From Planctomycetota bacterium (GTDB taxonomy: Bacteria > Planctomycetota > Phycisphaerae > Phycisphaerales > SM1A02): DNA of 64,000 nt. The notes beneath the pieces are model-generated. The model saw nothing but the letters and a program-made list of their open reading frames with translations. It did no database searches and was not told where the DNA came from. Positions within the stretch are counted from its first letter, which is position 1; the number at the start of each line of letters is the position of its first letter. This document shows, in pieces, positions 14,549 to 31,528 of this stretch. Where the stretch lies: assembly GCA_034211115.1 (NCBI GenBank), contig JAXHTH010000210.1, forward strand, positions 546 through 64,545, in the 5' to 3' direction. The translations under genes and the position numbers were made by a program.

Positions 14549-14648
14549 AGTATCCCGCCCCCTGCGGCGATGCCATCTTCATTTGTCGACAGGGCCGCCC
14601 GGCCGCCTGGGCGGTTATCGTCCCCCGCGACGCGGTCGGAGGCGGCGA

Positions 14649-15302: not shown

Positions 15303-15529
15303 GCTCGAAGTCTACCGGGTTCCCGCCGCCGTGGGCCGCATTTGGGAGCCGCGGGGGGCGAACCGCCGATGACAGAATCGAGCCGTCCTGCCCTGGAGGG
15401 GCCCGCGTCGTGCCCGATGCCCACGCAACCTGCGGATTCGCGCCGCTTCTGACCGGCTCGTCGCCGACGGGCGCGCCGCTCATCGCCGCCCTCGAGGGGC
15501 CGCAACGCGAGCACGCGCTCGAGCAGGCC

Positions 15530-17929
15530 ATGAAGCGCCTCCACGCCGCCGGCGATGTGCACCTGCTGCTGGCGATGATCAAGGCCCTCCTCCGCCTCGG
15601 CCTCGCCGGCCTCGCCCTCCGCCTCCTTCATTCCACCCGTGTGCCGAGGCCGATGCAGAACGACCTGCGCGACCTCGCCGACGAACTTGCCGCGCTCCCC
15701 TCCGGCGAGACACCGCTGGCGGGACTCGCCGACCGGTATCGCGCCCACGCCTCCATCCTGCACGCGCGCTGGCCCCATCTCCGTGACGTGATCCCCGCCT
15801 CGCCGCCCGATCTTGACGATGTTCATCTCTTCATCACGCCCGCGGGCAACACACACGCGGTGCGCGACGACCCCGCCGGACGGCTGCACTTTCTCTTCCC
15901 CTTCGTCGATCATCACCGGCAGGCCGCGCGATTCGAGCCCGGGCCGGTGCGCGAAGGGTCGGCGGTGCGCGCGCTCGGTGTCCCGCCGCCGCCCCTGCTC
16001 ATGCGCCTCTTCGCCCTGCACACGGATTCGGATTTCCGCCCGCCCATCGACATCATCGAGCCCGATCCGCGCGTCTTCGCCCTCTGGCTGCACCTGGCGG
16101 ACATGGCGCGTTTGTTCGATGACGTTCGCATCACGCCCTTCGTCGGCCCCGATGCGCTTGGACAGTATGAGCGGTTCCGCGCCGCTCACCTCTGGCGGCC
16201 GGAGCCGACGCTCACCCTGAAAAACCACCGGCCCGACTGGCGCGCCGACGCAGCGCCGGGCGATGTCCGAACGCTTGACCAACGCGTGCGCTCCGCGGTA
16301 CGGACACGGCAGCAGGCGCTGTTCGATCGCCAGGCGGCGCGCTGGGCGTCCTGTTCCCCCGCGTCATGGGCGCGACGCTTCCGCGCCGCGACTCGCGGCG
16401 GGCCGCCCCTTCGCGTCCTCGCCCTCGCCACCCGCTACTCCACCGTCACCCGCCACGCCATGCGCGACCTCGCCGCCGCGTTCCGGCGCCGAAACTGCCA
16501 CGCCGACGTCGTCACCGAACCGCACGATTGCAGCAGTCGGATCGACACCTGGTCGCTCCTGGCCGACGAATCGTACGACCTCATCGTCGTCCTCAATCAC
16601 CTGCGCGCCCCGCTCGCCGACCAGATTCATCCGAACGTCCCGTATGTCTGCTGGATTCAGGACCACATGCCCGAGCTGTGGACGCGGTCGGCGGGCCGAT
16701 CGATCGGTGAACTGGACCTCGTCATCGGCCGCGACCGCGGCGTCCTCACCACGCTGCACGACTATCCGGCCGATCGTTTTCTCCCCGCGGGCAATCTCAC
16801 CGATCCCGTGACCTACAGCGCCGAACCGCTCGGCGAGGATGAGTCGGCGCGGTTCCGGTGCGATGTTTCTTACATCAGCCACGCCTCCGCGACGCCGGAC
16901 CGGATGATCGACGACATCGCCGCGCGCAACGCGCCCGCGACCGCCGCCTGCCTGCGGCGCGTGCTGGCGCTGATGCGCCGCCGCGTCGCCGAATCCGGCT
17001 TCGTCTCCCTTATCGACACCTACGCGATCATGCTGCAGGCCGAGCGCGAAGGCGGTGACGTCTCGTTCACGCGAGCCGAACGAAATACCCGCATGCACCC
17101 CGTCGTCCTCGCTCTCTTCGATCGTCTCTTTCGCCACGAAGCGCTGGAGTGGGTCGCGGAATGGGCCGCCGCCCGCGGTCGATCGTTCAGACTCTTCGGT
17201 CGAGGCTGGGAACGCCATCCGACCCTGCATCGCTTCGCGTGCGGCGAGCTCGCCAACGGTCGCGGGCTTCGCTGCGCCGCCCAGGCGTCGCGCATCAACC
17301 TCCAGATCAACGGCTACGGGTCGCTGCATCAGCGCCTGCTCGACAGCCTCGCCTCAGGGGGCTTCGTGCTCACCCGGTACAACCCGCATGACTTCATCCG
17401 CCCGCCGATGCTCGAGCTGCGGCGGATCATCGAATCCCGCGACATTACGAGTCTTTCGCAGCTTGTCGATCCCGCGGGTCCGGCCCCCGAGGCCGCCGCG
17501 CACCTGGAGACGCTGCGCCGCCTCCGTCAGCCGAGCGTCGCGCCGGCCGATGATCCCCTGCGCCGCCGCGAGGTCGACCTTATGTACGACGTCGGCGGCT
17601 TCCCGCGCGACAAGCTGACCGATGAGGCATTCCTCGAGTCACTCCGATCGCAACGCTACCTGCCCCACCGCCTGGCCGGCGACATCCCGGGCTTCACGCG
17701 AACCACCTTCGCCGATCGCGGCGCCCTGCACGACATGCTCGATCATTATGTTGATGATGACGCCGCACGTCGTGAACTCTCCGAGATGATGCGGCGCGAT
17801 GTGCTGGACCACGATACCTACGATTCGCTCGTCCGGCGCATCACCCGCCATTTCACGTGCCTGCCGTCGTCGCGTCCCGCGCGTGCGGGCGCAGCCACCG
17901 CGCCGAAGACGACGGGAGGCGTCACCTGA
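15530..17929 (+). CDS. large glycosyltransferase-like protein with CgeB/DUF3880-type C-terminal domain
   Basis: High GC3 in this frame. The C-terminal region FRLFGRGWERHPTLHRFACGELANGRGLRCAAQASRINLQINGYGSLHQRLLDSLASGGFVLT resembles the CgeB-family GT domain. The start is uncertain: the ORF is open from 15236, with a possible GTG near 15410. The stop overlaps the next start (TGATG). Confidence 0.6.
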   Translation: MKRLHAAGDVHLLLAMIKALLRLGLAGLALRLLHSTRVPRPMQNDLRDLADELAALPSGETPLAGLADRYRAHASILHARWPHLRDVIPASPPDLDDVHLFITPAGNTHAVRDDPAGRLHFLFPFVDHHRQAARFEPGPVREGSAVRALGVPPPPLLMRLFALHTDSDFRPPIDIIEPDPRVFALWLHLADMARLFDDVRITPFVGPDALGQYERFRAAHLWRPEPTLTLKNHRPDWRADAAPGDVRTLDQRVRSAVRTRQQALFDRQAARWASCSPASWARRFRAATRGGPPLRVLALATRYSTVTRHAMRDLAAAFRRRNCHADVVTEPHDCSSRIDTWSLLADESYDLIVVLNHLRAPLADQIHPNVPYVCWIQDHMPELWTRSAGRSIGELDLVIGRDRGVLTTLHDYPADRFLPAGNLTDPVTYSAEPLGEDESARFRCDVSYISHASATPDRMIDDIAARNAPATAACLRRVLALMRRRVAESGFVSLIDTYAIMLQAEREGGDVSFTRAERNTRMHPVVLALFDRLFRHEALEWVAEWAAARGRSFRLFGRGWERHPTLHRFACGELANGRGLRCAAQASRINLQINGYGSLHQRLLDSLASGGFVLTRYNPHDFIRPPMLELRRIIESRDITSLSQLVDPAGPAPEAAAHLETLRRLRQPSVAPADDPLRRREVDLMYDVGGFPRDKLTDEAFLESLRSQRYLPHRLAGDIPGFTRTTFADRGALHDMLDHYVDDDAARRELSEMMRRDVLDHDTYDSLVRRITRHFTCLPSSRPARAGAATAPKTTGGVT

Positions 17930-19272
17930 TGCACTGGGTGCTCGTCAGCGCGCGGCATCATCCTTCTCACGGCGGGATCGGCGCGCATGTCTGGTCCTTC
18001 TGCACTGCGGCCCGCGAGGCCGGCTGGCGCGTCGATCTTCTCACCCGTCCCGGACCGACTTACCCGCCGGCGGAACAGGTTCACGTCATCCGGACCCGCG
18101 ATGATCGTCACGATTTCGGCAGGCGAATTGCAGCGCTGCGCTCCATCGAGCGCATTCGCCCCTATCGCTACGGCCTCTGGTCGCTCGCCGTCGCCGAGCG
18201 GCTGCGGGAATTCGAGGTCAGGCCGGATGCGATCGAATTCGTCGACTGCCAGGCGGAGGGGTATGCGTCCCTGTGCAGCCATCGTGTTCGCGACCGCTTT
18301 CCGGGGGTGCCGATGATCGTGCACGCGCACACGCCGATGTTCATCGAGGAGTCGATCAACGGATGCGATGCGCGACGCTTCGGCCGGTCCATCTATCACG
18401 GTTGGGAGCGCGCAGCGCTGCGCGCCGCGGACGGCATCATCACCGTCAGCGCCCTGCTCGCGAAGCGCCTGGGCCAGCATACGCAGGTGATCGCTCCCTG
18501 TCTGCCGGTGGCGCCCTCCCGCTGCGGACGCGCCGATGGCTCGCGGCATCCTTATATCCTCTTCGTCGGCAGCGTTCAGCCGCGCAAGGGCGTCGATGTG
18601 TGGGCGCGAAGCCTCAACCGCGTTCTGCGGGTCCGGCCGGACGTCTCCGCCGTCCTCATCGGCTCCGATACGATGACCGGACCCGGCGAAACGAGCATGA
18701 GCACGCATGTCCGCGCGCTGATCGCTCCGGCCTTACGTTCTCGCGTCCACTGGCGCGGTCCGCTGTCGCACGGCGAGACAAGGCGCGCCATCGAATCCGC
18801 CGCGGTCGTGGTCGTCCCCAGCCGGTTCGAGAGCTTCAGTTATGTCGGCGCGGAGGCGCTGCTGTCCCGTCGACCGGTTGTTCTTTCCGATCGCGTCGGG
18901 CTGCGCGAATGGATCGGCGACCCGCCGGGTGTGCCGATCGATGACGCGGCGGCGCTGGCGCGGGCGCAGAGGTCAATCCTCGGCGAACCGTCCGCGCCGC
19001 GCCGTGCCGCCGCCCGCTTCCGTTCACTTCTTCTCGATGCCTGTACGCCCGCCCGTCACCTCCGGGAGAAGGCGGTGCTCGCCGCGCGCTTCGCGGACGT
19101 GTCCTTACGTCGCTCCTCGCGCCGACGATGCGCGGATGACGCCATCGAGCACATGCGCCGGTTCCTTCGCGGCGTCGAGACGAGGGAAGCATCAGTTGCA
19201 GCCGGGTCGCGAGGAGCACGCGTGAGCGCATCTTCCCTGGAGGGCAATACCGAGGAGCCCGCATACTGTTGA
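17929..19272 (+). CDS. glycosyltransferase family 4 (GT-B, GT1-type)
   Basis: HGGIGAHVWSF, FVGSVQPRKGVD and VVVVPSRFESFSYVGAEALLSRRPVV (E-x7-E region). Start is the ATG at 17929. Confidence 0.85.
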   Translation: MHWVLVSARHHPSHGGIGAHVWSFCTAAREAGWRVDLLTRPGPTYPPAEQVHVIRTRDDRHDFGRRIAALRSIERIRPYRYGLWSLAVAERLREFEVRPDAIEFVDCQAEGYASLCSHRVRDRFPGVPMIVHAHTPMFIEESINGCDARRFGRSIYHGWERAALRAADGIITVSALLAKRLGQHTQVIAPCLPVAPSRCGRADGSRHPYILFVGSVQPRKGVDVWARSLNRVLRVRPDVSAVLIGSDTMTGPGETSMSTHVRALIAPALRSRVHWRGPLSHGETRRAIESAAVVVVPSRFESFSYVGAEALLSRRPVVLSDRVGLREWIGDPPGVPIDDAAALARAQRSILGEPSAPRRAAARFRSLLLDACTPARHLREKAVLAARFADVSLRRSSRRRCADDAIEHMRRFLRGVETREASVAAGSRGARVSASSLEGNTEEPAYC

Positions 19273-20891
19273 ACTGCCCCCGCTTCAGCATCGTGATCCC
19301 GACCCGAAACAGGGCCGACCTGCTGCCGGGCGCCGTGCGCAGCGCGCTCGGTCAAACCTGCCGCGACCTCGAGATCGTGATCTCGGATAACCGCAGCGAC
19401 GACAACACCGCCGAGGTTGTCGGCCGGTTTGATGATCGGCGTCTGCGCTACGTGCGGACGCGGAGCGCCCTGCTGATGCATCACAGTTGGCGCTTTGCGC
19501 TGCGCCACGCGCGAGGCGCCTATGTCGGTTTCCTGTGCGATGACGATGCGCTGCACCCGGACGCGATCGCCTGCGCGGATACGATCATCCGGCGCACGGG
19601 CGCCGATGTCGTCGTCTGGCGATCATGCTCGTACGGCCTTCCGGACTGGCCGGACGCGCGCATCCGCGGTTGGATCCGGTTCGGCCCGCCGTACTCGGCT
19701 CGCGCGTGGGAGATCGACGGAGGACGCCTCGTGGATCTGGCGTATGATCTGCGGGTCACCTTCAGCGAGCTTGTTCCGAAGATGCTCAACGGCGTCGTGT
19801 CGCGCGCGCTGATCGCGCGCATCCGGGCCGACGGAACCGAGCTGTTTCATCCGTCATCGCCGGACTACTCCGCGATGCTCGTGCTCGCCGCGAACGCCCG
19901 TCGAATCGTGCTGCTCGATGCGCCGCTGCTCGTCGCGGGAGCCACCGCGCGTTCGATCGGGGCATCGACGCTGCGCGGATACGATTCGGCGCGGGCCTAC
20001 GGGGCGCAGCTCTGCGCGCGGGAGCCCGATCTCGTTGTGCCGGCGGCGGTCGGGCCGCGAATCGCCTGGCTTGCGCAGACGTATATGCAGTGCGCGCGCG
20101 ACGTGCCTTGTCTGCGCGAACGCGCGGTGAATCCGATTCATCTCTACGGTCTGAGCGGGCGCGAATTGAATCGCGCCGAGGAAGCCGGAATCGATGCGGG
20201 CGATTCCCGCGCGCGGCACGAGGCGGCGCTGGAAGGTCCGCTCGCCGACGATCGCGCGGCGATCGAGGCGTTCGCGCGCGGGAACGTCGAGATCGAATCC
20301 GAGACGTTTCTCGCCGGGACGGTGGGATCGGAGTCGGGGCTTGCGGCCGAGCCGTTCATTCTGAACGACATCGACCTTGAAGGCACGAAACCGGCGGGGG
20401 CCCACGAGGTTGCCGCCGACCTCGATCGGCTGCGCCAGGCGGGAGCGCTCGGGCTGTCCGCGTTCTGGAAGGCCGTGTTCGAGCGTGCCGCCTCGCGCCG
20501 CGTCATCCTGTACGGTCTGGGGCGGAACGGGCGCGCGCTGCTGCGCGCGTCGCGCGATTTGCGGCCGGAGATCGCCTGTTGCGATGATCACGCGCAGCTC
20601 GACGACGCGCTCGGCGTGCCCAAAACGGATTGCGCGGAGCTCGATCCCGCCGCGCATTACGTCTGCGTGACGATGAACGATGCGGCGCCGGTCGCAGGAT
20701 CACTGGCGACGCGCGGCTTCGCGAGGGGACGCGACTGGTCAACCATGCGCGAGATCTCCGCGATGGCGGCACGAGGGACGTCTGTGTCTGCAGGAGTACA
20801 ATACGGGCGCCGGGCGAGGGTTGGCTCGCGTCATGACAGGATGGTCTTGAAGGCGGCGCAGACGCGCGAGACGTCGTCGGCGGAGAGTTGA
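19269..20891 (+). CDS. glycosyltransferase family 2 with long C-terminal extension
   Basis: FSIVIPTRNRADLLPGAVRSALGQTCRDLEIVISDNRSDDNT...FLCDDDAL (GT-A fold with DxD). The TTG start overlaps the previous stop. The 3' end overlaps the convergent DegT-type gene by 61 bp (20831-20891), so the exact C-terminus is uncertain. Confidence 0.8.
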   Translation: MNCPRFSIVIPTRNRADLLPGAVRSALGQTCRDLEIVISDNRSDDNTAEVVGRFDDRRLRYVRTRSALLMHHSWRFALRHARGAYVGFLCDDDALHPDAIACADTIIRRTGADVVVWRSCSYGLPDWPDARIRGWIRFGPPYSARAWEIDGGRLVDLAYDLRVTFSELVPKMLNGVVSRALIARIRADGTELFHPSSPDYSAMLVLAANARRIVLLDAPLLVAGATARSIGASTLRGYDSARAYGAQLCAREPDLVVPAAVGPRIAWLAQTYMQCARDVPCLRERAVNPIHLYGLSGRELNRAEEAGIDAGDSRARHEAALEGPLADDRAAIEAFARGNVEIESETFLAGTVGSESGLAAEPFILNDIDLEGTKPAGAHEVAADLDRLRQAGALGLSAFWKAVFERAASRRVILYGLGRNGRALLRASRDLRPEIACCDDHAQLDDALGVPKTDCAELDPAAHYVCVTMNDAAPVAGSLATRGFARGRDWSTMREISAMAARGTSVSAGVQYGRRARVGSRHDRMVLKAAQTRETSSAES

Positions 20892-21970
20892 AGGCCGCTT
20901 GGTAGATTGATACCGCGCGGCGAGAGGTGATACGCCTTCGGATTCCGCGCGGCGGCGAGCGCGGGACCGCCGAGATGAGCGTAAGCAGGCAGCGAGCTGA
21001 GCGGGTGGAACATGGGCCGCGTATCAATCCCGTGCCGATCGAACCCGGACATGAGTTCCCGCTTGTCGATCGCGCATGAGGGATCGACCACGGCAGTGCA
21101 CATCCAGTACGCGTTGTGCGTGTCGGCCTGATCCGGATTGAGGGTTATGTCCGGTCGATCGGCAAGGCCCGCGCGATACCAGTCGAAGATCCGGCGCTTG
21201 CGATTGAGAAGTTGCTCGATGCGCTCGAGCTGGGCCAGGCCGAACGCGGCCTGGAGATCGCTCATTGCATAGCGAAGGGCAACCTCGTGATTCCAGAACC
21301 AGCGATCGCCCGGTTCGCGACCGTGGTCGGCGAGGGTGAGGCACCGTCGATACAGGGCTTCATCATCGGTGAGCAGCATGCCGCCCTCGCCCGTGGTGAG
21401 CGTCTTGGAGCCGTGGAAGCTGAACACGCTCACCCGGCCGAAGGCGCCGGCGCGACGACCTCCCTGGTCGGCGCCGAGCGCTTCGGCGGCGTCTTCGATC
21501 ACGGCAATCCCGCGTTCGGCCGCGACATTAAGTACCCGCGGCATGTCGGGCATGTTTCCGTACAGATCGACGGCGATTACCGCTTTCGTGCGCGCGGTGA
21601 TCGCGCGCTGCAGCGAGTCGGGACAGATGCACCAGTTGGCGGGGTCAATGTCGACGAAGACCGGGGCCGCGCCGACGTAAGTGATCGGAGCGGCGGAGGC
21701 GATCCAGGTGAGCTCGGGGACGATGACCTCGTCGCCCGCGCCGACGCCGAGCGCGGCAAGCGCAAGATGAATGGCGGAAGTGCACGAGGGCAGGGCAAGC
21801 GCGTAGCGGCGGCCGACCCACGCGGCGAACGCGGACTCGAAACGACGACGAAACGCGCCGGCATGCTCGCCCCAGGCATGACGGGCCGCGGCGGCCACAC
21901 GGGCGACTTCCGCGTCGGTGATCGAAGGACCGGCGAGTGGGATGCGAGACTCGTTCACGGCCGAACACAC
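20831..21970 (-). CDS. DegT/DnrJ/EryC1/StrS family sugar aminotransferase
   Basis: LALPSCTSAIHLALAALGVGAGDEVIVPELTWIASA, IEDAAEALGA and SFHGSKTLTTGEGGML (PLP lysine region). Confidence 0.9.
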   Translation of the reverse strand: MCSAVNESRIPLAGPSITDAEVARVAAAARHAWGEHAGAFRRRFESAFAAWVGRRYALALPSCTSAIHLALAALGVGAGDEVIVPELTWIASAAPITYVGAAPVFVDIDPANWCICPDSLQRAITARTKAVIAVDLYGNMPDMPRVLNVAAERGIAVIEDAAEALGADQGGRRAGAFGRVSVFSFHGSKTLTTGEGGMLLTDDEALYRRCLTLADHGREPGDRWFWNHEVALRYAMSDLQAAFGLAQLERIEQLLNRKRRIFDWYRAGLADRPDITLNPDQADTHNAYWMCTAVVDPSCAIDKRELMSGFDRHGIDTRPMFHPLSSLPAYAHLGGPALAAARNPKAYHLSPRGINLPSGLQLSADDVSRVCAAFKTILS

Positions 21971-22749
21971 CTGAGGTAGCCGTCCGGCGCGGCGGTGATC
22001 ATGAGCTTGGCCGGAATATCGCGATCGATCTCGAACCGTCCGGTGGTCGCAAGATACTCATGAACGGCTGTCTTCGGATTGTTGCCGTTGTCCCAGCGCG
22101 CATCCGCGAGAAAGCCCGGCGGAAGATCCTGAATGACGGTGTCGAAGACGATGAGGTAACAACCGGGTGTCACGAGCGGGCCGTAGAGTTGCAGTTCGCG
22201 CAGAACGTGATCGTGTGCATGGTGTGAATCCAGAATGACCATCCTGCGATCGTATCGATCGGCCAATGCGGCCACTCGCGCGGCGAGGTGCTCGTCGACG
22301 GACGAGCCGTCGAGAAGCGTGATGAGCGGGCCAAGCGGATGGCCGAGGATGGCGCTTCGATTGTGAGGCCGAAGATCGATGTCAATCCCGATCACGCGTC
22401 GCTCCCCGCCGAGAAGCTGGAGGAGGGACGCCCAATAGACAAGCGATCCGCCGTGGGCGATTCCTGTTTCGATGACGAGATCGGGCCGCGTGCGCCAGAT
22501 GATCTCCTGCGCGGCGAGTAGATCCTGCGGGAACTGAATGATCGGCCGACCGAGCCAGGTGAAGTTGTATGTATACTTGTGCTGCGACGAGTGCATCATC
22601 CAGCGGAGCGAGAGCGCGCGCAGATCGGCATCGCGCGCGAGATCCGATACGTGGCGGGCGCGTTCGGTCTCGAACCTGCGAACCGGGTCCGGGTCGTTGG
22701 CGGGCCGGGCGGCGCTGGGCTCGTGTTGTGTGCGGCCGTCATCAGGCAT
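21955..22749 (-). CDS. CmcI/cephalosporin-hydroxylase-family methyltransferase
   Basis: YTYNFTWLGRPIIQFPQDLLAAQEIIWRTRPDLVIETGIAHGGSLVYWA...MVILDSHHAHDHVLREL is the CmcI-family signature. Confidence 0.85.
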   Translation of the reverse strand: MPDDGRTQHEPSAARPANDPDPVRRFETERARHVSDLARDADLRALSLRWMMHSSQHKYTYNFTWLGRPIIQFPQDLLAAQEIIWRTRPDLVIETGIAHGGSLVYWASLLQLLGGERRVIGIDIDLRPHNRSAILGHPLGPLITLLDGSSVDEHLAARVAALADRYDRRMVILDSHHAHDHVLRELQLYGPLVTPGCYLIVFDTVIQDLPPGFLADARWDNGNNPKTAVHEYLATTGRFEIDRDIPAKLMITAAPDGYLRCVRP

Positions 22750-23917: not shown

Positions 23918-24701
23918 TGAACATGTGGGGCACGGCGCGAGGGCGAACGAAACCCGGCCAGAGACGGGCGGCGTTGTCGAGCAGGATGGCGGCGAGGGCG
24001 CCCGGAGCGACACCGACGGCACGGGCGAGCCGAACCGACTCGGCGAGCTGAGGTCGCGGATCGGCCGAAGGCCAGTCGCTTCCGAAGAGGAGGCGCCGGG
24101 GGCGGGTCTGAAGATAGACGGTGAATGGTTTGAGCGCGTCGGAGTCCTTATAATAAGACATCGTGACCGCGAAGTCATAGAGCACGTTGGGAAGCGATGC
24201 CGTATGCGCGCGGAACGCCCAGGACTGGTACCCGCCGGCGTGCGTGGCGATGATCGGTGTCTCGGGCAGCGCCCGGGCGAGCGCGATGATCAGCGGCAGG
24301 CTGATTTCATAATCCAGGCTGGTGCCCCAGGGGTAACAGTGGACGATGAGGCCGGCGACCGGCGGATCATGGGTGAGAAGCCGTTCGCCGAGGGGCGGGA
24401 TGCGGTCGGCGGTGAGACGTGCGAGAACGGGGTGGATCTTGTACCAACCGCTGCGGCGCGCCCAGTCGGGCAGATCATCGTCAATGGGATAGAAAGGAAC
24501 GGGTTGCAGCGCGGGCGGCAGCGCGTCGAGATGCGTATCGACAAAGCCGAGTTCCTCGCGCGTATTGAGAATCAGATTCGCGCCGATCATCTCGGGATGG
24601 GCCTCGGCGTGTGCGCGCAGGCGGTCCAGCCCATCCTGGTCCGGCGAGGGAAGATGAAGATGATCGTCGAAGAAGGGGAGTGTGAGTTCAGGGTCGTTCA
24701 T
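23910..24701 (-). CDS. amidohydrolase-family (TIM-barrel metal-dependent hydrolase) protein
   Basis: N-terminal FFDDHLHLP (HxH-like metal motif), internal ATHAGG and C-terminal LLFGSDWP resemble PF04909-type amidohydrolases. It has an 8-bp overlap with the downstream gene. Confidence 0.7.
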   Translation of the reverse strand: MNDPELTLPFFDDHLHLPSPDQDGLDRLRAHAEAHPEMIGANLILNTREELGFVDTHLDALPPALQPVPFYPIDDDLPDWARRSGWYKIHPVLARLTADRIPPLGERLLTHDPPVAGLIVHCYPWGTSLDYEISLPLIIALARALPETPIIATHAGGYQSWAFRAHTASLPNVLYDFAVTMSYYKDSDALKPFTVYLQTRPRRLLFGSDWPSADPRPQLAESVRLARAVGVAPGALAAILLDNAARLWPGFVRPRAVPHMFNA

Positions 24702-25885
24702 GCGTACTCAACATGAATAAGCTGTCGGAGGCGGGCGGCGCGGGCCTCGACACGATCGCGTGTCTCGTCCAGGGCGATGAAGTAGGCGCCGCGATCGGTG
24801 TCGTCGGTGGGCGAGGTGATCGTATCGCCGGGCCGGTAGGGAATGTCGAGGACATGGGCGAGGCGCCGGCGACGCGCGTCGGCAGCGCCGTGCACGGCGC
24901 GGACGCGGCCGGGCGGAAAGCGGAAGAACTCGAGCACGGCGGCGCGAGAGGCGACGGACGGATCGGCGGGGGAGTCTCCCAGCAGACGGCGCAGCAGCAG
25001 GATATAAGGATCGACGCCGCTCACGTGCGGGACGATGGTGGAGGCGACGCCGTGCCCGCCGCCGCGCGCGGCGACTTCGATGAGGTAGGGAGCACCGGCG
25101 CGCAGACGGAACTCGGCATGGGTGAGCCCGTCGACGAGGCCGAGGGTGCGGGCGACGACGCAGGCCGCGTCGTGAACGGAACGAAGCGTGTCGCCGTTGA
25201 GGCAAGTGGGATACGCGAGTCGGCGGGCGACGCAGGGCAGATCGGCATAATGCGCCTTTTCCGAAACGGCGAGCACGTGATGACGGCCGCCCAGGGCGAG
25301 CCCCTCCACCGTGAGCTCGGGGCCGGCGATGTACTCCTCGACGAGGATGACATCGCGCGAGCGGGTGAGACAATCGTCAAAGCGGCGACGAAGCAGGTCT
25401 TCAGTGTGAATGCAGAAGACGCCGACAGAAGACTGGGAGGCGACAGGCTTGATGACGACGGGATATCCGAGGCTCCGCGCGGCATCGCACGCTTCCGAGC
25501 ATGAACGAGCCGTGCGGTGGCGGGGCAGGGGAACACCGGCATCGCGCAGCGCGCTTCGCATGATGCGCTTGTCAGTGAAGCGGAGGGCGACATCGGGTCG
25601 AATGCCGGGCCGGCCGAGCGCGTCGTTCAGAGCGGCGACCACGGGCACGGCGCGATCCGTCTGGTCGGAGATGACGAGATCGACCGCTTCGCGACGGGCG
25701 ATCGAAAGAAGGGCGTGTGCGTCATGCATGTCGACGGCGCGGAAGACGTGGGCGCAGGAGCGGCCCGGGGCGTCGGGATTGCGATCGGTGACAACGGTGC
25801 GCAGCCCCAGTGCGATCGCGCGCTGGATCAGGGGGAGTTGCCATCGTCCGCCGCCGATGATCATGACGGTGGAGGTCGCGGTCAT
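24698..25885 (-). CDS. ATP-grasp domain ligase
   Basis: VMIIGGGRWQLPLIQRA, DKRIMRSALRDAGVPLP, GYPVVIKPVASQSSVGV, VEEYIAGPELTVEG and HAEFRL...YLIEVAARGGG. Start is the ATG at 25885, with an ATGA overlap with the upstream gene. Confidence 0.85.
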   Translation of the reverse strand: MTATSTVMIIGGGRWQLPLIQRAIALGLRTVVTDRNPDAPGRSCAHVFRAVDMHDAHALLSIARREAVDLVISDQTDRAVPVVAALNDALGRPGIRPDVALRFTDKRIMRSALRDAGVPLPRHRTARSCSEACDAARSLGYPVVIKPVASQSSVGVFCIHTEDLLRRRFDDCLTRSRDVILVEEYIAGPELTVEGLALGGRHHVLAVSEKAHYADLPCVARRLAYPTCLNGDTLRSVHDAACVVARTLGLVDGLTHAEFRLRAGAPYLIEVAARGGGHGVASTIVPHVSGVDPYILLLRRLLGDSPADPSVASRAAVLEFFRFPPGRVRAVHGAADARRRRLAHVLDIPYRPGDTITSPTDDTDRGAYFIALDETRDRVEARAARLRQLIHVEYA

Positions 25886-26916
25886 CGCGCACCTCGCTTG
25901 CGCGCGAAGAGAAAGAGGCTGTCGCCGTATCCGAGGCGCTGCGCGAGCAGACCATCGAAGAAGACAGCCCAGAGGAGGCGGAGTTGATAATTGCGGATGA
26001 AGCGCGCGCCGGACGGGGCGGGGAACGTGCCGAGGAGCGTGCGAAGGATGCGTTGAAGGAGAGGATGAAGGTGATAGAGAAGCTCCCCGCGGTTGCGCAG
26101 GTCGAGAATCTCCAGGCGCTGCCGGCGGGCGAGGCGGGTGAGCGACGAGCGGTTGAACCAGCGGAGGTGCCCAAGCTTCTGGCGGGGATCGCTGAGAAGG
26201 CGCCATCGCGCGCCGAGCCGGCGCGCCTTGGCCGAATCGAGATCCGGGGTGGAGAGGCAGAGCACGCCGCCGGGCGCGAGAAGGCGGACGGCGCGGGTCA
26301 GGTCGGGCCGGAAGTCGAGCAGGTGCTCGATGATGAAGCACATCGTGATGATGTCGAAGCGCTCTGACAGATCGACATCGAAGACATCGCCGGTCGTAAT
26401 AAGAGGCGCGATGTCCGGGGGCGCGGCCTGGCGCGCATCGGGATCGATGTCGACGCCGCGGAGGCGGGCGGCCGGGCGCAGGCGGCGGAAGGCGCCGAGG
26501 AGCCGGCCGGTGCTGCAGCCGATGTCGAGGATGGCCGGCTCGGCGCGCCGTGGAGACAGGAAGTGCAGGCAGCGGCGCGCGACGAACTCGTAATAGAGGC
26601 CGTGCCGGGCGTAGAGCGTTTCGAGGTTGCGGAAGAACAGCCTGCCCGTGTTGGGATTCGGAAAGGTTTTCGAGAAGACGCGGTCCTCGAGGTAGAGTTC
26701 ATCGAGATCGCGCGGCGTGGGCGGGGGCTGCATGATCGCCAGCCCGCAGTTACGGCAGCGCAGCACATCGAACGATGTAATACGCCGGGAGAAGTTGGCG
26801 TCGGCGACATGCGCGTGGGGGTCGAACGCCGCCCCGCCGCAGAGAGGACAGACAGGCCCGGGAGACGAAGCGCTCGCGTGGGCGGTGTCGGGGAATGTCG
26901 CGAGGCGGCTGTGCAT
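25882..26916 (-). CDS. class I SAM-dependent methyltransferase with N-terminal zinc-ribbon
   Basis: CPLCGG...CRNCG zinc-ribbon, then ILDIGCSTGRLL and LLAPGGVLCLSTPD. Start is the ATG at 26916. Confidence 0.8.
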   Translation of the reverse strand: MHSRLATFPDTAHASASSPGPVCPLCGGAAFDPHAHVADANFSRRITSFDVLRCRNCGLAIMQPPPTPRDLDELYLEDRVFSKTFPNPNTGRLFFRNLETLYARHGLYYEFVARRCLHFLSPRRAEPAILDIGCSTGRLLGAFRRLRPAARLRGVDIDPDARQAAPPDIAPLITTGDVFDVDLSERFDIITMCFIIEHLLDFRPDLTRAVRLLAPGGVLCLSTPDLDSAKARRLGARWRLLSDPRQKLGHLRWFNRSSLTRLARRQRLEILDLRNRGELLYHLHPLLQRILRTLLGTFPAPSGARFIRNYQLRLLWAVFFDGLLAQRLGYGDSLFLFARKRGAR

Positions 26917-26923
26917 GATCGTC

Positions 26924-27403
26924 TTACCGGCAGGCGAGAGACCAGTCATACGGAATGTGGTTGCGGACCGGATCGAGGCGGTCGGTGCGATCGGCCTGCG
27001 GATCGTGCGGGTGCGTGCAGCAGTTTGCGACGATGGCACAGGGGTCGGTCAGACCCTTGAAGCCGTTCCACACGCCGGGAGGGATCTGGACGAGGACGTA
27101 ATCATCAGGCCCCGGAAAGAGCTCCATGACCGCGCCGCGGGTGGGCGAATTCGCGCGCTCATCGTACAGGGCCAGCTTGATGCGTCCGAAGATGCAGGCG
27201 TAATTGAGTGTCATCTCGCGGTGACGATGCCAGCCCTTGATGACGTGGCGGTAGACGGTCGAGAAGTAGATCTCCCCGAAGCCAATAAAGTGCGGGTCAT
27301 CGGCCCGGAGCATGTGCATCACCGTGCCGCGCTCGTCGGGGATACGGCGGAGAGGAACGACGCGGACGCCGTCGATTGTCGAGGGGCCGGTCGACGGGTT
27401 CAT
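26924..27403 (-). CDS. cupin-fold NDP-sugar epimerase/isomerase (dTDP-4-dehydrorhamnose 3,5-epimerase / WxcM-like)
   Basis: IPDERGTVMHMLR...FGEIYFSTVYRHVIKGWHRHREMTLNYACIFGRIKLALYD...VQIPPGVWNGF. Confidence 0.8.
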   Translation of the reverse strand: MNPSTGPSTIDGVRVVPLRRIPDERGTVMHMLRADDPHFIGFGEIYFSTVYRHVIKGWHRHREMTLNYACIFGRIKLALYDERANSPTRGAVMELFPGPDDYVLVQIPPGVWNGFKGLTDPCAIVANCCTHPHDPQADRTDRLDPVRNHIPYDWSLACR

Positions 27404-28575
27404 ATCAGGCGCAGCTCGGGTATGGGGACGATGAAGCGCCCGCCGCGCTGAAGATAAGGAGCATTGCGTCGGCAGATCTCATCGGCGATGTTCCAGGGGA
27501 AGAGAAGACAGGCGTCGGGTGACTCCTCCATGAGCATGTCCGGCGCGACGACGGGCTGGCCGGTGCCGGGAATATAACGTCCCTGCTTGTGCGGGCTCAC
27601 ATCGGCGATCCAGGGAATGCGATCCGGGCCGAGTTGAAGTCGATTGAGAAGAACGACCGCCTTTGCGGCGGCCCCGAAGCCGCCGACGGCCTCGAAGCGG
27701 TCGAGGGCGGCGAGAAGGTCCGCGAGGATCGTCTGCACGCGTGCGCCGAAGGCGTGATACGGGGCGTCGTCGAAGAGACCGAGGCGGCGCTCGTCCTCGC
27801 ACGTGCGGTCCGCCTGCGCCTGGTCCCCGCGGTGGGCGATCTGAACGTGAAGCGATCCGCCATGGATCGGGATCTCATGAAGCGCCGTGATGACGAGATC
27901 GTGCGCGTTGAACAGGCGACGAAGCGCCGACACCGAGTAGTAGCTGTAGTGCTCGTGATAGATCGTGTCGAAGGCGCCGGAGTCGAGCAGGCGAAGGACG
28001 TAGGGAACCTCGACGTGGGCCGCGCCGTCGTCGGCGAGCAGGATGCGCATGCCTTCGGCGAGTTCGTGGGGATCGGGGACGTGGGCGAGCACGTTGTTGG
28101 CGAAGATGACATCCGCGGCGCCGAACGCGCGGCGGATCGCGCGGGCGGTGCGGGGATTGAAATAGTCGCAGCGGGTGGGCACGCCGTCGGCGAGGGCGGC
28201 GGCGGCGACGTTCTCCGCGGGATCGATGCCGAGCACACGCGCGCCGCGCGCAATGGCGTGCCTGAGAAGAGAGCCGTCGTTGGAGGCGATCTCGACGACG
28301 CGTTGACCGGGGCGGACGAAACGCTCCACGAGCCGATGCGCCTGCGCGACCATCGTCTGTGACTGGCCGGAGAAGTAGCGGTAGTCGCGGAAGAGCAGGT
28401 CGGGCGGGGTGGATTCGGTGAGCTGCATGAGCGAGCAGTCGCGGCAGAAGACGGCCTTCAGCGGGCGGCGCGGCGCCGGTTCATCGGGATGGGTGAGCAG
28501 GTTGTTGGCCAGCGGCATGGTGCCGAGGTCGATCACCTCCCCCAGCGAATGACCGCCGCAGAGCCGGCAGGTCAC
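27400..28575 (-). CDS. NDP-hexose C-methyltransferase (TylCIII-like)
   Basis: N-terminal zinc ribbon CRLCGG...CRDCSLMQL, the SAM domain VVEIASNDGSLL and the C-methyltransferase C-terminal domain HEHYSYYS...GGFGAAAKAVVLLN. Confidence 0.85.
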   Translation of the reverse strand: MTCRLCGGHSLGEVIDLGTMPLANNLLTHPDEPAPRRPLKAVFCRDCSLMQLTESTPPDLLFRDYRYFSGQSQTMVAQAHRLVERFVRPGQRVVEIASNDGSLLRHAIARGARVLGIDPAENVAAAALADGVPTRCDYFNPRTARAIRRAFGAADVIFANNVLAHVPDPHELAEGMRILLADDGAAHVEVPYVLRLLDSGAFDTIYHEHYSYYSVSALRRLFNAHDLVITALHEIPIHGGSLHVQIAHRGDQAQADRTCEDERRLGLFDDAPYHAFGARVQTILADLLAALDRFEAVGGFGAAAKAVVLLNRLQLGPDRIPWIADVSPHKQGRYIPGTGQPVVAPDMLMEESPDACLLFPWNIADEICRRNAPYLQRGGRFIVPIPELRLI

Positions 28576-29639
28576 GGAGAATCACCGTGGCGAGCCGGGG
28601 GCGACGGCGGGGCGGACGCCGGCTCCGGAGCGGCCGCGTCGGGAAGATTCAGATGGCGACGATACCAGGGCACGGTGGCGCGAAGGGCGGCATCGACGGC
28701 GTGGCGGCGCCGCCAGCCGAGCACATCGCGGGCCCGCCGCGAATCCAGATGCTGGGCGTCGATCTCGCCCACGGCGGTGTCGGCGATGATCGGCTCGAGA
28801 TCCTCGCGCCCCGCCGCGATACGAATGCGGTGGACCATCTCGAGCACCGTCAGCGGGCGGTCGGCGCCGAAGTTGAACGCGCATCGGGCGGGATCGGCGG
28901 CGGGCGACTCGTCCAGCCATCGCGCCAGGGCCAGCAGGGCGTCGACGGCATCGTCGATGTAGATGTAGTCGCGGACGGGCGAGCCGTCGCTGCGAATCAC
29001 CGGACGGCGCCCGCGCAGCAGCGCGCAGAGAACGGACGGAACGAGACGGCTGAAGTTCACATCGCCGGGTCCGAAGACGTTCCCGCAGCGGGCGATGGCG
29101 ATCGGCAGCGCGTACGTCGCCGCGTACGACTGCGCCAGAAGATCCGCGCACGCTTTCGAGACGTCGTAGGGGAAGCGCCCCGCGAGCGGGGTGTGCTCGG
29201 TGTATGGAAGATCGGGGCAGGTTCCGTAGGCCTTGTCGCTGGAGGCGATGATGAGACGCTCCACGCGCGGACCGGCGAGGCGGCAGGCCTCGAGCACGTT
29301 CCACGTGCCGTGGATGTTGGACCGGAACGTCGTCAGCGGATCGCGCCGCGCGGCGCCGACGATGGTCTGCGCCCCGAGATGGAAGATCGTGTCGATCTCG
29401 CGGGCGCTGACGGCGGCGCGGACGAGCTCGAACTGCTCGAGTCGGCCGTCGATGAGGTGGACGCGGGCGGCGTCGCCGGACATCCGCAGCGGGGAGCGGG
29501 GATCGTGGTCGCAGACGAAGGCGAAGACCGTCGCCCCGCGGTCGAGCAGGGCGCGAACCAGATGCGCACCGATGAACCCGTCGGCCCCGGTGACGAGGAC
29601 GTTCGCGTTGGACCAGTCCGTGGGCATCGCCGGCATCAT
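28572..29639 (-). CDS. NAD-dependent NDP-sugar 4,6-dehydratase/epimerase (extended SDR)
   Basis: VLVTGADGFIGAHLV (Rossmann), ASSDKAYG and YDVSKA (catalytic YxxxK). The true start is ATG 29639 or 29636; the 795-aa ORF in the track is over-extended upstream. Confidence 0.9.
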   Translation of the reverse strand: MMPAMPTDWSNANVLVTGADGFIGAHLVRALLDRGATVFAFVCDHDPRSPLRMSGDAARVHLIDGRLEQFELVRAAVSAREIDTIFHLGAQTIVGAARRDPLTTFRSNIHGTWNVLEACRLAGPRVERLIIASSDKAYGTCPDLPYTEHTPLAGRFPYDVSKACADLLAQSYAATYALPIAIARCGNVFGPGDVNFSRLVPSVLCALLRGRRPVIRSDGSPVRDYIYIDDAVDALLALARWLDESPAADPARCAFNFGADRPLTVLEMVHRIRIAAGREDLEPIIADTAVGEIDAQHLDSRRARDVLGWRRRHAVDAALRATVPWYRRHLNLPDAAAPEPASAPPSPPARHGDSP

Positions 29640-29792
29640 GGTAAAGAAACGCGGCGAGGTTGGGGTCGGCGGCGGCGCGGGGGGGAGGCGGCAGCCGGTA
29701 CCATCGGGGATCGGGCCGCCGCGCCTTCGCGCCGCGGGCCCCACGGCCGCGCCCGGCCGGTCCGATCCCCCTCGAGGAGGTGACGGAAGGCG

Positions 29793-30932
29793 ATGCTGAG
29801 CTACCTGCTGCCCACGCGGAACCGTCCCGAACGCCTCGCGGCGACGCTGCGGGCGGTGGGCAACCTGTCGGCAGCGGCGCACGAGCCGATGGGCGGCGCG
29901 GAGGTGATCATCGTCGACGATGCCTCGGAGACGCCGATCAAACCGGAGGCGGCGCTCCGGAACGGCATGCCCGTGACGGTGATCCGGCGCGACCGATGGG
30001 AGGGGGCGTCGGCCCGGAACGCCGGGGCGCGCCTCGCGCGCGGCGCGTGGATCGTCATGCTCGATGATGATTCGCATCCCGTCGACGAGGCGGTGGTGCA
30101 GGTCTTGGCCGGGGCGGACGAGGACGTCGCCGCCATCGGGGCCGAGATCGTCCTGCCCGACGGACGGCACGAGGCCGGCGGGCTGCCGGAGGTGTTCGTC
30201 GGCTGCGGCGTCGCCCTGCGCCGGCAGGCCTTCCTCGAAGTCGGCGGCTACGATCGCAGCTTTCATTACTACGCCGAGGAATACGACCTCTGCGCCCGGC
30301 TGCTGCTCGCCGGCTGGCGCATCACGCACGACTGGCGCTGGACGGTGCGGCATGAACGTGATCCGCACGGGCGCGACATGAACCTGATCCTGCAACGCCT
30401 CGTGCGCAACAACGGCTACGTCATCCAGCGCTATGCACCGGAGGCGGAGCGCGAAGCGGCCCTGGAGAGAGTGATTCGGCGGTATCGCGACATCGCGCGA
30501 AGGGAAAACGCGATCGTCGGATGCGAACGCGGTCTCGATGACCTGAACGCGACGGCGGCGGCGCAGCGGAGACGACCGATGAGCGCGGCCCTGTGGGATC
30601 GGTTCATCGGCCTGACATCGGTAAGGACCGACCTCCCGGGCGCGGCATCGCTGCGGGATCGGCGGGTGACGATCGTCGATGCGGGCAAGCACGCCTGGGT
30701 CGTCCGACGCGCGCTGACCGACCTTGGCGCGGCGTGCGTCGATGACGAGGGTGAGGCGGAGATGCAGATCATCGGCACCCTCTCGCCGGGCCCGATGATG
30801 GATGCGTGGGCGCAACGAGTGCGGGAGGGTCGGGCGGTGGTGGCGCCCTGGCGGATCCCCGGCGCCGACGTGACGGCCGACGCATCGGACGCCTACGATG
30901 CCCTGTGCGATTCGGGGGATCTCCAGCGATGA
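29793..30932 (+). CDS. glycosyltransferase family 2
   Basis: LSYLLPTRNRPERLAATL...VIIVDDAS...ARNAGARLARGAWIVMLDDDSHP (GT-A with DxD). GAGGAGG lies upstream. It is divergent from the sugar operon. Confidence 0.8.
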   Translation: MLSYLLPTRNRPERLAATLRAVGNLSAAAHEPMGGAEVIIVDDASETPIKPEAALRNGMPVTVIRRDRWEGASARNAGARLARGAWIVMLDDDSHPVDEAVVQVLAGADEDVAAIGAEIVLPDGRHEAGGLPEVFVGCGVALRRQAFLEVGGYDRSFHYYAEEYDLCARLLLAGWRITHDWRWTVRHERDPHGRDMNLILQRLVRNNGYVIQRYAPEAEREAALERVIRRYRDIARRENAIVGCERGLDDLNATAAAQRRRPMSAALWDRFIGLTSVRTDLPGAASLRDRRVTIVDAGKHAWVVRRALTDLGAACVDDEGEAEMQIIGTLSPGPMMDAWAQRVREGRAVVAPWRIPGADVTADASDAYDALCDSGDLQR

Positions 30933-31528
30933 CCGATGCGCGGACCGACCAGATTGCACGCGAGGCGGCGCGCCTCATCGAGGCGGGCAAGGCCCGGACG
31001 GTGGGGGAGGCGATCCGCCTCGCCGCCGACGCACTCCGGCTCAAACAGGCGCCGATGCCCGGCCACGGCCGCGTGCGCAAGCACGCACAGGGGATGGCGA
31101 TGCAGGCGATGGGCGAACGCGCCTATCGACAGTCGATCGAGCACGTTCTGAACGTTGCCGAGCAGTTGTTGACGGTGCTGGAGCAGGGCGAGCCGGAGGG
31201 GCCGGCGGTGGTCGTGGGCCGGGCGGCAAAGGGACAGATCGACGCCGGCGTGACGCTGCACCTGCGCGTCTATACCCGTCGGCCGATCCGCGAGATCGTC
31301 GAGCATCTCGTCGCCTTCGGCTACGAGGAGCCGAGCTTCGAGACTGCGGACACGCGCTTCGGACGGCTTGACCGCGTCCGTTTTTCGGAAGAGGGATGCG
31401 AGGTGGCGCTGACGCGCTGCCTGCCGGAGATGATCGCGCACAAGGACTTCGATCTGTTCACGCGCCGTCCCATCGCGGTGGCGACGGCCGGTGAGCTGCG
31501 GCGGCGGCTGGCCGACGGCGGGCCCTGA
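30929..31528 (+). CDS. hypothetical protein
   Basis: ATGA overlap with the GT2 stop and good GC3. I recognise no family by eye. Confidence 0.55.
   Translation: MTDARTDQIAREAARLIEAGKARTVGEAIRLAADALRLKQAPMPGHGRVRKHAQGMAMQAMGERAYRQSIEHVLNVAEQLLTVLEQGEPEGPAVVVGRAAKGQIDAGVTLHLRVYTRRPIREIVEHLVAFGYEEPSFETADTRFGRLDRVRFSEEGCEVALTRCLPEMIAHKDFDLFTRRPIAVATAGELRRRLADGGP

Follow-up and report, generated by a model that had tools for sequence, protein, structure and literature searches.

A nine-gene cassette predicted to build a decorated amino-deoxysugar within a glycosyltransferase locus of a Phycisphaerales genome

We analysed a 64,000-nucleotide stretch of DNA, here called the window (contig JAXHTH010000210.1, positions 546 to 64,545; C210:546-64545 in our numbering), from the planctomycete metagenome-assembled genome (MAG) GCA_034211115.1, which belongs to the Phycisphaerales and comprises 4.44 Mb in 371 contigs at 90.5% completeness. 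A 16-kb cluster in the window combines glycosyltransferase (GT) genes with a nine-gene operon for the synthesis and decoration of a predicted amino-deoxysugar. Cassettes that tailor nucleotide sugars within variable glycan loci are a known kind of system, of which this one is an uncharacterised variant. Its 14 genes are given below, where SAM stands for S-adenosylmethionine, PLP for pyridoxal phosphate, NDP for nucleoside diphosphate and SDR for short-chain dehydrogenase/reductase.

15410..17929, plus strand: large GT-B glycosyltransferase of 839 amino acids (PF13524, 36.6 bits)
17929..19272, plus strand: GT4 glycosyltransferase (PF13439/PF00534/PF13692)
19269..20891, plus strand: GT2 glycosyltransferase of 540 amino acids, named GT2a (PF00535, 1.4e-19)
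20831..21970, minus strand: DegT-type PLP sugar aminotransferase, last gene of the operon (PF01041, 1.3e-110)
21955..22749, minus strand: SAM methyltransferase of the CmcI/rhamnosyl O-methyltransferase family (PF04989, 1e-82)
22742..23917, minus strand: class I (AspAT-like) PLP aminotransferase (PF00155, 2.8e-54)
23910..24701, minus strand: metal hydrolase of the Amidohydro_2 superfamily (PF04909, 1.3e-15)
24698..25885, minus strand: ATP-grasp carboxylate-amine ligase of the L-amino-acid-ligase type (PF13535 and PF18603 LAL_C2)
25882..26916, minus strand: SAM methyltransferase of 344 amino acids with two N-terminal CxxC pairs (PF13489, 2.1e-21)
26924..27403, minus strand: RmlC-like cupin of 159 amino acids (PF00908, 3.8e-10)
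27400..28575, minus strand: NDP-hexose C-methyltransferase of the TylC3/MtmC/TcaB9 family (PF08421, PF13489 and PF08484)
28572..29639, minus strand: extended SDR, predicted NDP-glucose 4,6-dehydratase, first gene of the operon (PF01370, 2.7e-52; PF16363)
29793..30932, plus strand: GT2 glycosyltransferase, named GT2b, divergent from the operon across a 153-bp spacer (PF00535, 1.3e-15)
30929..31528, plus strand: conserved Phycisphaerales protein of 199 amino acids with a Pol-beta nucleotidyltransferase-like fold in its structural model

ORF (open reading frame) listing, start-codon inspection and a Pfam scan recovered all 14 of 14 ORFs with the domains that an earlier annotation of this DNA (the original prediction) had described, and every junction between them was reproduced. 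The nine genes of the minus-strand operon (29639->20831) overlap by 4, 4, 4, 4, 8, 8 and 16 bp on recomputation, with a single 7-bp gap between the cupin and the 344-residue methyltransferase genes (junction order along the operon: 4, 4, 7-bp gap, 4, 4, 8, 8 and 16 bp). The DegT gene could start either at 21970 or at GTG 21958, the latter giving a 4-bp overlap. On the plus strand, stop and start codons are interleaved as TGATG (large GT/GT4), TTGA (GT4/GT2a) and ATGA (GT2b/199-residue ORF). The ATG at 15530, at which the large GT had been thought to begin, is probably too far downstream, because its homologs measure 803-874 residues; GTG 15410 matches the gene call (P0110) and is likelier. GT2a and DegT are convergent and their 3' ends overlap by 61 bp (20831-20891), a geometry called identically in three closely related contigs (L063, L064 and L007). 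No terminator-like hairpin was found between the two convergent operons, and a promoter and terminator scan of 15-32 kb gave signals not above those of shuffled sequences. Apart from a few near 41-45 kb and 59-64 kb, the other window ORFs were scanned as well and proved to be housekeeping genes or genes without relation to the cluster. The named relatives of the lineage-specific window genes belong to Phycisphaerales or Planctomycetota.

Four operon genes encode the enzymes expected to shape the sugar itself. For the SDR, the top NCBIfam model was that of CDP-glucose 4,6-dehydratase (RfbG/DdhB, TIGR02622), at 164.6 bits and below its cut-off of 278.45; the dTDP-glucose dehydratase model scored 156.1 bits (cut-off, 365.1), and the PDB matches were dTDP- and CDP-glucose dehydratases at 1e-34 to 1e-25. 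The protein contains GADGFIG (GxxGxxG), YDVSK (YxxxK) and SSDKAYG (Ser-Asp-Lys), the last unlike the GTDEVYG (T-D-E) of an RmlB encoded on contig C225 of the same MAG. We take an Asp-Lys pair at this place to be typical of CDP-glucose 4,6-dehydratases, as in the Yersinia Eod structure, versus the Asp-Glu pair of RmlB. Moreover, an SDR that is 48% identical to that of the window, from an Actinomycetes MAG (locus L005), follows an RfbF-like nucleotidyltransferase gene, which favours CDP as the carrier.

The C-methyltransferase scored above the cut-offs of all three of its Pfam domains (PF08421, 64.9 bits; PF13489, 62.9 bits; PF08484, 139.2 bits) and aligned over its full length with PDB entry 4rv9 (E=2.3e-79, residues 2-387), followed by KijD1 (2e-68) and TcaB9 (3e-65). 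Its cysteines C3, C6, C44 and C47 and its I-Y-H-E-H-Y (YHEH) motif could be matched by eye to residues of TcaB9, where they are presumably the four zinc ligands and the catalytic Tyr-x-Glu-His. The nearest solved relatives are all C3 enzymes, and C3 is the most likely methylation site on homology grounds. The cupin matched a 'dTDP sugar isomerase' (PDB 3ejk, 2.8e-33) ahead of RmlC structures (1e-3 to 1e-6) and is predicted to be a 3-, 5- or 3,5-epimerase of a 4-keto sugar; its subfamily differs from the RGLHFQ-type cupin of the cassette at L006, a locus described below. The DegT protein (PF01041, 370 bits) keeps the PLP lysine in FSFHGSK, not the histidine of the dehydrases ColD/E1, and its top PDB match was GDP-perosamine synthase (3bn1, 1.4e-80, 274 bits), whereas QdtB and WbpE, which are C3 enzymes, reached about 143 bits. 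The LegC, PseC, ArnB and DesI models came after perosamine synthase, all with equivalog cut-offs missed. Thus, DegT is predicted from these matches to be a C4 aminotransferase; it is 49% identical to its ortholog in L006. Neither a 2,3-dehydratase nor a 3-dehydrase was found in the locus, so the 2- and 3-hydroxyls should stay on the sugar. The full-length TylC3/MtmC/TcaB9 homolog, the C4-type DegT and the S-D-K/YxxxK SDR agree with the C-methyl-branched, aminated and further decorated deoxysugar that had been proposed from the sequence.

The remaining five operon genes are of the kind that would decorate such a sugar. The ATP-grasp protein (PF13535, 55.5 bits; PF18603 LAL_C2, 53.6 bits) matched the L-amino-acid ligase BL00235 (PDB 3vot, 1.1e-19) and has about 95 homologs, all uncharacterised. 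In most fetched loci containing the ATP-grasp gene, a DegT gene accompanied it. This consistent tie of the family to amino-sugar pathways is the main argument for sugar N-acylation rather than free dipeptide formation, and we predict that the enzyme N-acylates the 4-amino sugar, gene context favouring an amino-sugar acceptor over two free L-amino acids. In the Amidohydro_2 protein, D12, H16, K88, H90, H154, H166 and D209, residues of the metal-ligand type, are invariant in our alignment A2. As a single sequence it had no match in the PDB, and a nine-sequence profile returned weak superfamily matches only (3cjp at 7e-5, LigY and lactonases). The class I aminotransferase, with the lysine motif SKTFGLSGWRIGY, matched aromatic and aspartate aminotransferases of the PDB at 3e-50, and orthologs 45-51% identical adjoin the ATP-grasp gene in at least 15 loci of other lineages. 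The 344-residue methyltransferase carries the motif CPLCGG...CRNCGL, has weak PDB matches that include sugar N-methyltransferases, and takes the place of an unrelated 208-residue methyltransferase in the cassettes of other phyla. The latter, whose NCBIfam matches were all at noise level, might speculatively be a keto-acid C-methyltransferase of the GlmT/MppJ type. Finally, the CmcI-type protein scored 93.5 bits with the NCBIfam rhamnosyl O-methyltransferase model, below the cut-off of 400; in the fetched loci its gene was detected only together with 6-deoxyhexose genes, and we predict a sugar O-methyltransferase. Beta-methyl amino acids are known to be made by pairing an aminotransferase with a SAM methyltransferase, and the amidohydrolase could conceivably cyclise or trim the acyl group.

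We then mapped the loci of the ATP-grasp homologs by tblastn. The contigs of the close lineage (L007, L063 and L064) are syntenic with the window at 57-83% identity. In locus L006, a ten-gene run encodes an RfbF-type NTP_transferase, SDR, RmlC cupin, C-methyltransferase, DegT, ATP-grasp, Amidohydro_2, aminotransferase, small methyltransferase and CmcI. The same gene set was observed in two Polyangia MAGs (L009 and L014), an Achromobacter MAG (L011) and a proteobacterial MAG (L012), whereas it is partial in an Actinomycetes MAG and a Terriglobia MAG. It forms one unidirectional run in L006, L011 and L012 (L012 ends before CmcI) and occupies both strands in the Polyangia loci, and the block of ATP-grasp, Amidohydro_2, aminotransferase, methyltransferase and CmcI is collinear throughout. 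This recurrence of the whole set as one operon in other phyla supports the nucleotide-sugar pathway originally proposed. The aminotransferase, ATP-grasp, Amidohydro_2 and methyltransferase quartet was confirmed with Pfam, together with DegT and SDR, in a Dormibacteraeota locus, and was mostly visible by tblastn in Terriglobia and Eremiobacterota-type MAGs. More distant ATP-grasp homologs (27-39% identity) lie at most 10 kb from NeuB-type nonulosonate synthase genes in 7 loci, including those of Woodsholea, Butyrivibrio, a Bacteroidetes MAG, an archaeon and another planctomycete. The context of one further candidate, P0080, proved to be an unrelated, frameshift-ridden locus and was rejected.

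The neighbourhoods of these cassettes differ. In L011 (64-5279) and L012 (1-3400), fliC is followed by a gene for a tetratricopeptide-repeat (TPR) protein with a GT41 glycosyltransferase domain and then by the cassette, so that both are candidate flagellin glycosylation islands for an undescribed sugar. The TPR-GT41 protein of L011 measures 1137 residues and has an extra N-terminal methyltransferase domain. L006 also has a TPR-GT41 gene upstream of the cassette, and in the Actinomycetes locus L005 a Wzy_C gene and a GT4 gene stand beside it.

The GT genes around the operon behave differently from the operon itself. A complete Phycisphaerales genome (CP070772.1; G423 in our numbering) has DUF480, large GT, GT4, GT2b and 199-residue genes in the layout of the window. 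Its order is DUF480, FG-GAP, large GT (45% identical), radical SAM, TylF-type methyltransferase, CmcI-like, aldo-keto reductase and GT4 (47%); on the opposite strand GT2, CmcI, an SDR::C-methyltransferase fusion, RmlC, methyltransferase, SDR and an RfbF-type NTP_transferase; and then HldE-like, GT2b (55%) and the 199-residue gene (46%). The sugar operon enclosed is unlike that of the window, begins with its own RfbF-type cytidylyltransferase gene and seems to encode a further pathway to a heavily methylated sugar, housed by this GT frame too. The fusion protein (L065 2954-5155) has 733 residues with PF13489 and PF08484, and nearby genes encode a radical SAM protein, a TylF-type methyltransferase and a 563-residue CmcI-like protein. 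GT4 orthologs are 56-61% identical in L063 and L064, and GT2b is 70% identical in L007. Those of GT2a are confined to the close lineage (L063, 58%; L064, 53%; L007, 46%). These comparisons suggest that large GT, GT4 and GT2b form a frame conserved in Phycisphaerales, within which the sugar operon has been exchanged. Side by side with this, an mcsB-mcsA-DUF480 trio lies directly upstream of the large GT in the window (12926-15302), in L063 (20-2407) and in L064 (7583-9947), and in CP070772.1 the DUF480 gene (L062 6100-6750) still adjoins the large GT, with the FG-GAP gene between them. The preserved DUF480 neighbourhood indicates that the glycan locus has a fixed chromosomal address within the lineage.

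The large GT has 35 homologs, and those with a source name all come from Phycisphaerales or Planctomycetota MAGs. Its AlphaFold (AF2) model (mean predicted local distance difference test score, pLDDT, 90.3) shows a GT-B core together with helices at the N-terminus and an alpha/beta domain, and Foldseek placed the GT4-like enzymes GlgM, MshA and BshA at the top, matching only the GT-B core. Bacillus subtilis CgeB combines a DUF3880 N-domain with a PF13524 C-domain. The 'CgeB-like' label given to the large GT holds for the shared PF13524 domain (36.6 bits), whereas no N-terminal Pfam domain was found and the model is generically GT-B/GT4-like. We also considered TPRs in the N-terminus, as in FlmG- or OGT-like protein glycosyltransferases, and rejected them, since Pfam gave no support and Foldseek matched the GT-B core only. 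With such a generic fold, the large GT alone is no argument for the protein glycosylation at which the original prediction had hinted; that hint receives its support from the fliC and TPR-GT41 contexts in the two proteobacterial MAGs.

The small gene at the end of the cluster, described earlier as unknown, indeed has no Pfam or NCBIfam match. It is conserved throughout the lineage, however, with 246 homologs (52-100% identity among the 120 matches listed; named sources, Phycisphaerales and Planctomycetota MAGs); few genes of the region are conserved as strongly, and a role specific to this pathway is improbable. In its AF2 model (pLDDT 89), four helices make up the N-terminal part, and the C-terminal part resembles Pol-beta nucleotidyltransferases, with Foldseek matching Cid1, GLD-2 and CCA-adding enzymes at E about 5e-4. 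In place of the usual G-S...D-x-D motif, the protein has G-R...T-L-H-L-R. As a candidate for the activating nucleotidyltransferase that the cluster lacks, the protein was ruled out: its fold is not that of a sugar-1-phosphate nucleotidyltransferase, the canonical acidic pair is missing, many Phycisphaerales have it at 52-89% identity and it coexists with RfbF in CP070772.1.

The nine-gene operon is patchily distributed. Only 5 of 400 other Planctomycetota genomes had an ATP-grasp homolog, in every case at 40% identity or less and never in the same gene order, and identities to Polyangia and Terriglobia were 44-50%. Moreover, the G+C content at third codon positions (GC3) was 0.80 in the operon compared to 0.867 in the other window genes (p=0.0013). 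Patchy distribution, lower GC3 and the 44-50% identities fit a horizontal exchange of the cassette into a resident locus. GC3 was also uneven inside the operon (0.82-0.87 in the SDR, C-methyltransferase, cupin and 344-residue methyltransferase genes; 0.74-0.785 in the ATP-grasp, amidohydrolase, aminotransferase, CmcI and DegT genes), which hints at a mosaic of two acquisitions. All nine genes showed dN/dS (nonsynonymous to synonymous substitution rate) ratios of 0.08-0.31 at dS of 0.7-1.6 against L063 and L007, indicating that they are maintained by purifying selection.

Our favoured reading, held with somewhat better than even confidence, is that a GT frame conserved in the lineage houses a horizontally exchanged nine-gene cassette that builds a decorated amino-deoxysugar for a glycan. 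In the proposed order of steps, the SDR would dehydrate NDP-glucose (probably CDP-glucose) to a 4-keto-6-deoxy sugar, which the RmlC-like cupin would then epimerise. The TylC3/TcaB9-type enzyme would add a C-methyl group, most likely at C3, and the perosamine-synthase-like DegT would transaminate C4 to yield an NDP-4-amino-4,6-dideoxy-3-C-methylhexose. The ATP-grasp ligase would activate a carboxylate as acyl phosphate and form an amide with the 4-amino group. The acyl group may be an amino- or keto-acid derivative made or finished by the class I aminotransferase, the Amidohydro_2 enzyme and the SAM methyltransferase; our guess is a methylated amino acid, possibly cyclised. With O-methylation of the sugar by the CmcI/rhamnosyl-O-methyltransferase-type enzyme, the predicted product is a 4-acylamino-4,6-dideoxy-3-C-methyl-O-methylhexose. 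The GTs would place it in a short surface glycan on a protein, for example flagellin, or on a lipid-linked polysaccharide, and we consider these two acceptors about equally probable. Indeed, the position of the cassette behind fliC and TPR-GT41 in two proteobacterial MAGs makes flagellin or other protein glycosylation a realistic fate, and, with the flagellin and TPR-GT41 genes of our MAG on other contigs and Wzy_C beside the Actinomycetes cassette, the acceptor could be of either kind. The flagellin genes lie on contigs C73 and C16, not near the window. A 742-residue TPR-GT41 (OGT-like) protein is encoded on C57 (17586-19814; L067 8587-10815); it is 28% identical to that of L006, and its neighbours (PhoH-PIN, DUF498, a methyltransferase and a dockerin-tailed protein) give no clue to its target.

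Several points weigh against this reading. All enzyme specificities are extrapolated, since every cassette protein stayed below the NCBIfam equivalog cut-offs, and methylation at C3 is not certain because the C-methyltransferase family also holds C5-methylating enzymes such as NovU. We know of no assayed member of the ATP-grasp family of this cassette, and the PDB searches gave no informative relative of the Amidohydro_2 protein. The window SDR is 34% identical to the SDR of the other-phylum cassettes, and the counterparts of the cupin and the 344-residue methyltransferase were undetectable by BLAST; these genes are not orthologous. Above all, a gene for an RfbF-type glucose-1-phosphate cytidylyltransferase is absent from the window and from the whole MAG, where tblastn with the RfbF-type proteins of L006 and CP070772.1 returned nothing credible. 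Because of this absence, CDP is at best a probable carrier and even the operation of the pathway in this organism is a supposition, and product predictions made from the window alone would be incomplete. That the window holds no nucleotidyltransferase, flippase or polymerase had been stated from the beginning and was borne out among the window ORFs scanned. The gap is specific, for in relatives the cassette is headed by an RfbF-type gene, which the MAG lacks. The genome search for the missing enzyme, proposed at the same time, found four PF00483 proteins, all on other contigs (a short RmlA, a ManC-type, a GalU-type and a GlmU-N-like protein), and no RfbF type. Likewise, no RfbF-type gene was present in the recovered parts of L007, L063 and L064. 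Two explanations remain, namely that the gene lies in the unassembled ~10% of the genome or that another nucleotidyltransferase serves.

The strongest alternative is that the same sugar is used in a lipid-linked surface polysaccharide (lipopolysaccharide O-antigen or exopolysaccharide, EPS), for which Wzx/Wzy, a phosphoglycosyltransferase and a chain-length regulator would be encoded elsewhere; we regard this as possible but doubtful. The MAG has Wzx-like proteins (contigs C226, C60 and C332) and Wzy_C proteins (C197, C327 and C115), four GTs would fit a repeat unit, and the Actinomycetes locus L005 has Wzy_C and GT4 genes adjoining the cassette. An EPS-type set on contig C225 (10.1 kb) is also in line with this alternative; it comprises a 766-residue protein like polysaccharide co-polymerase (PCP)/tyrosine kinases, a 489-residue Bac_transf phosphoglycosyltransferase and a 1492-residue TPR protein, besides a short RmlA (252 residues) and the TDE-motif RmlB, which is cut by the contig end. 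However, the machinery is missing from the 68-kb contig and from the equivalent locus of the complete relative, and the cassettes of L011 and L012 follow fliC and TPR-GT41. Neither NTP_transferase nor Wzx, Wzy or phosphoglycosyltransferase was found among the scanned window ORFs, and no whole-genome match to PF00483, PF01943 or PF04932 fell on this contig.

It is unlikely that the ATP-grasp, Amidohydro_2, aminotransferase and methyltransferase block makes a free, dipeptide-like small molecule and is merely co-located with the sugar genes. The nearest solved ATP-grasp relatives (BL00235, BacD and the DdaF model) do ligate free amino acids in pairs, but the block sits between sugar genes with overlaps of 4-8 bp, has no adjacent exporter or self-resistance gene, and accompanies DegT and SDR genes in each phylum that we examined, whether the context is a hexose or a nonulosonate one. 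Marginally less likely still is an orphaned cassette that, without its RfbF-type activator, would be substrate-less and either silent or decaying. The lack of an RfbF homolog both in the assembly, with its four other NTP_transferases, and in the recovered parts of the syntenic contigs would fit this idea, whereas four diverged contigs all have the nine ORFs intact, in one order and under purifying selection, the MAG is incomplete and fragmented, and the short RmlA-type enzyme could substitute. Least probable is the decoration of a secondary metabolite. TylC3/TcaB9-type C-methyltransferases and DegT are indeed classic members of antibiotic deoxysugar pathways, but the scanned window ORFs include neither PKS, NRPS or terpene genes nor a GT1-type natural-product GT, the GTs present are GT2/GT4-like, and relatives of the cassette lie beside fliC or Wzy genes.

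Beyond the glycan-directed cassette that we favour, we propose, tentatively and short of an even chance, that the quartet of aminotransferase, L-amino-acid-ligase-type ATP-grasp, Amidohydro_2 and SAM methyltransferase is a portable module that adds a methylated, amino-acid-derived acyl group to nucleotide-activated amino sugars, these being 4-amino-6-deoxyhexoses here and, for the distant ligase relatives, nonulosonic acids in bacteria and archaea. If so, the ATP-grasp family would provide the first defined NDP-amino-sugar:carboxylate ligases, and undescribed C-methyl, O-methyl, N-aminoacyl sugars would be expected on flagellins (Achromobacter-type) and planctomycete surfaces. Rare sugars on bacterial surfaces and flagella shape recognition by phages, immune systems and plants, and for the attachment of amino-acid-type acyl groups to amino sugars few enzymes have been assigned. 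The interest of the locus lies in this cross-phylum acylation module, in the frame-and-swap architecture and in the specific lack of the activating enzyme. The compact cassette offers a candidate gene for each decoration step and is testable by heterologous expression, and related Phycisphaerales provide a natural experiment in which one GT frame holds different sugar operons.

The literature searched contained neither an identical characterised cluster nor an ATP-grasp ligase combined with a C-methyltransferase in O-antigens. Flippase, polymerase and initiating phosphoglycosyltransferase, the hallmarks of Wzx/Wzy-dependent clusters, were found neither in the cluster nor among the other scanned window ORFs. 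An adjacent flagellin gene with a Maf, FlmG or TPR-GT41 glycosyltransferase, the hallmark of flagellin islands, is missing at the window and is present in L011 and L012. With TylC3, MtmC, KijD1 and TcaB9, the C-methyltransferase shares full-length homology (2e-79 to 3e-65) and all three domains, of which the N-terminal one binds zinc, the next is the SAM domain and the last lies at the C-terminus. The substrates of those four enzymes are dTDP-2,6-dideoxy or 3-amino-2,3,6-trideoxy sugars of actinomycete natural products, whereas the window pathway has no 2,3-dehydratase and would keep the 2-hydroxyl, its carrier is probably CDP and its context is that of a surface glycan.

N-acylkansosamine, a sugar of the Mycobacterium kansasii lipooligosaccharide (LOS), is a 4-acylamino-4,6-dideoxy-2-O-methyl-3-C-methyl-L-mannose. 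This structure has the 6-deoxy, 3-C-methyl, N-acylated 4-amino and O-methyl pattern predicted here. It differs in the acyl group, a 2-methoxypropionyl without obvious need for an aminotransferase, and in its destination, a glycolipid and not a planctomycete glycan. In the M. kansasii LOS cluster, the genes that M. marinum lacks include those for a glucose-1-phosphate cytidylyltransferase and an SDR, along with a rhamnose epimerase gene and a methyltransferase gene (PMC4403928); compared by gene descriptions, the cluster opens like the L006-type cassette. In Clostridioides difficile, which offers a precedent for our reading, an ATP-grasp protein and a sugar aminotransferase are genetically required for the peptidylamido sugar of the type B flagellin glycan (PMC5207246). 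The likeness of that locus (CDR20291_0245, ATP-grasp PF13535; 0246; 0247, FdtB-like aminotransferase) is at the family level, while its product is a 3-amino sugar bearing a sulfonated peptide, and partners of the C-methyltransferase, CmcI, class I aminotransferase and Amidohydro_2 kinds are lacking there.

Among characterised systems, the nearest analogue is the modified viosamine (mVio) island of Pseudomonas syringae (vioA, vioB, vioM, vioR, vioS and acp, with fgt1/fgt2), which supplies flagellin with an N-acylated, O-methylated 4-amino-4,6-dideoxyglucose (PMC4622738, PMC3927599). Acylation there proceeds by ACP (acyl carrier protein), ketosynthase and reductase with a 3-hydroxybutanoyl group, in contrast to the ATP-grasp, aminotransferase and amidohydrolase found here. 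The mVio sugar has no C-methyl branch and is dTDP-linked, whereas the cassette relatives use RfbF (CDP), and no flagellin gene lies near the window. Both systems would nevertheless yield a terminal, N-acylated and O-methylated 4-amino-4,6-dideoxyhexose by means of a DegT-type C4 aminotransferase and a methyltransferase, and the flagellin context of mVio is shared by the L011 and L012 cassettes, which stand behind fliC and TPR-GT41.

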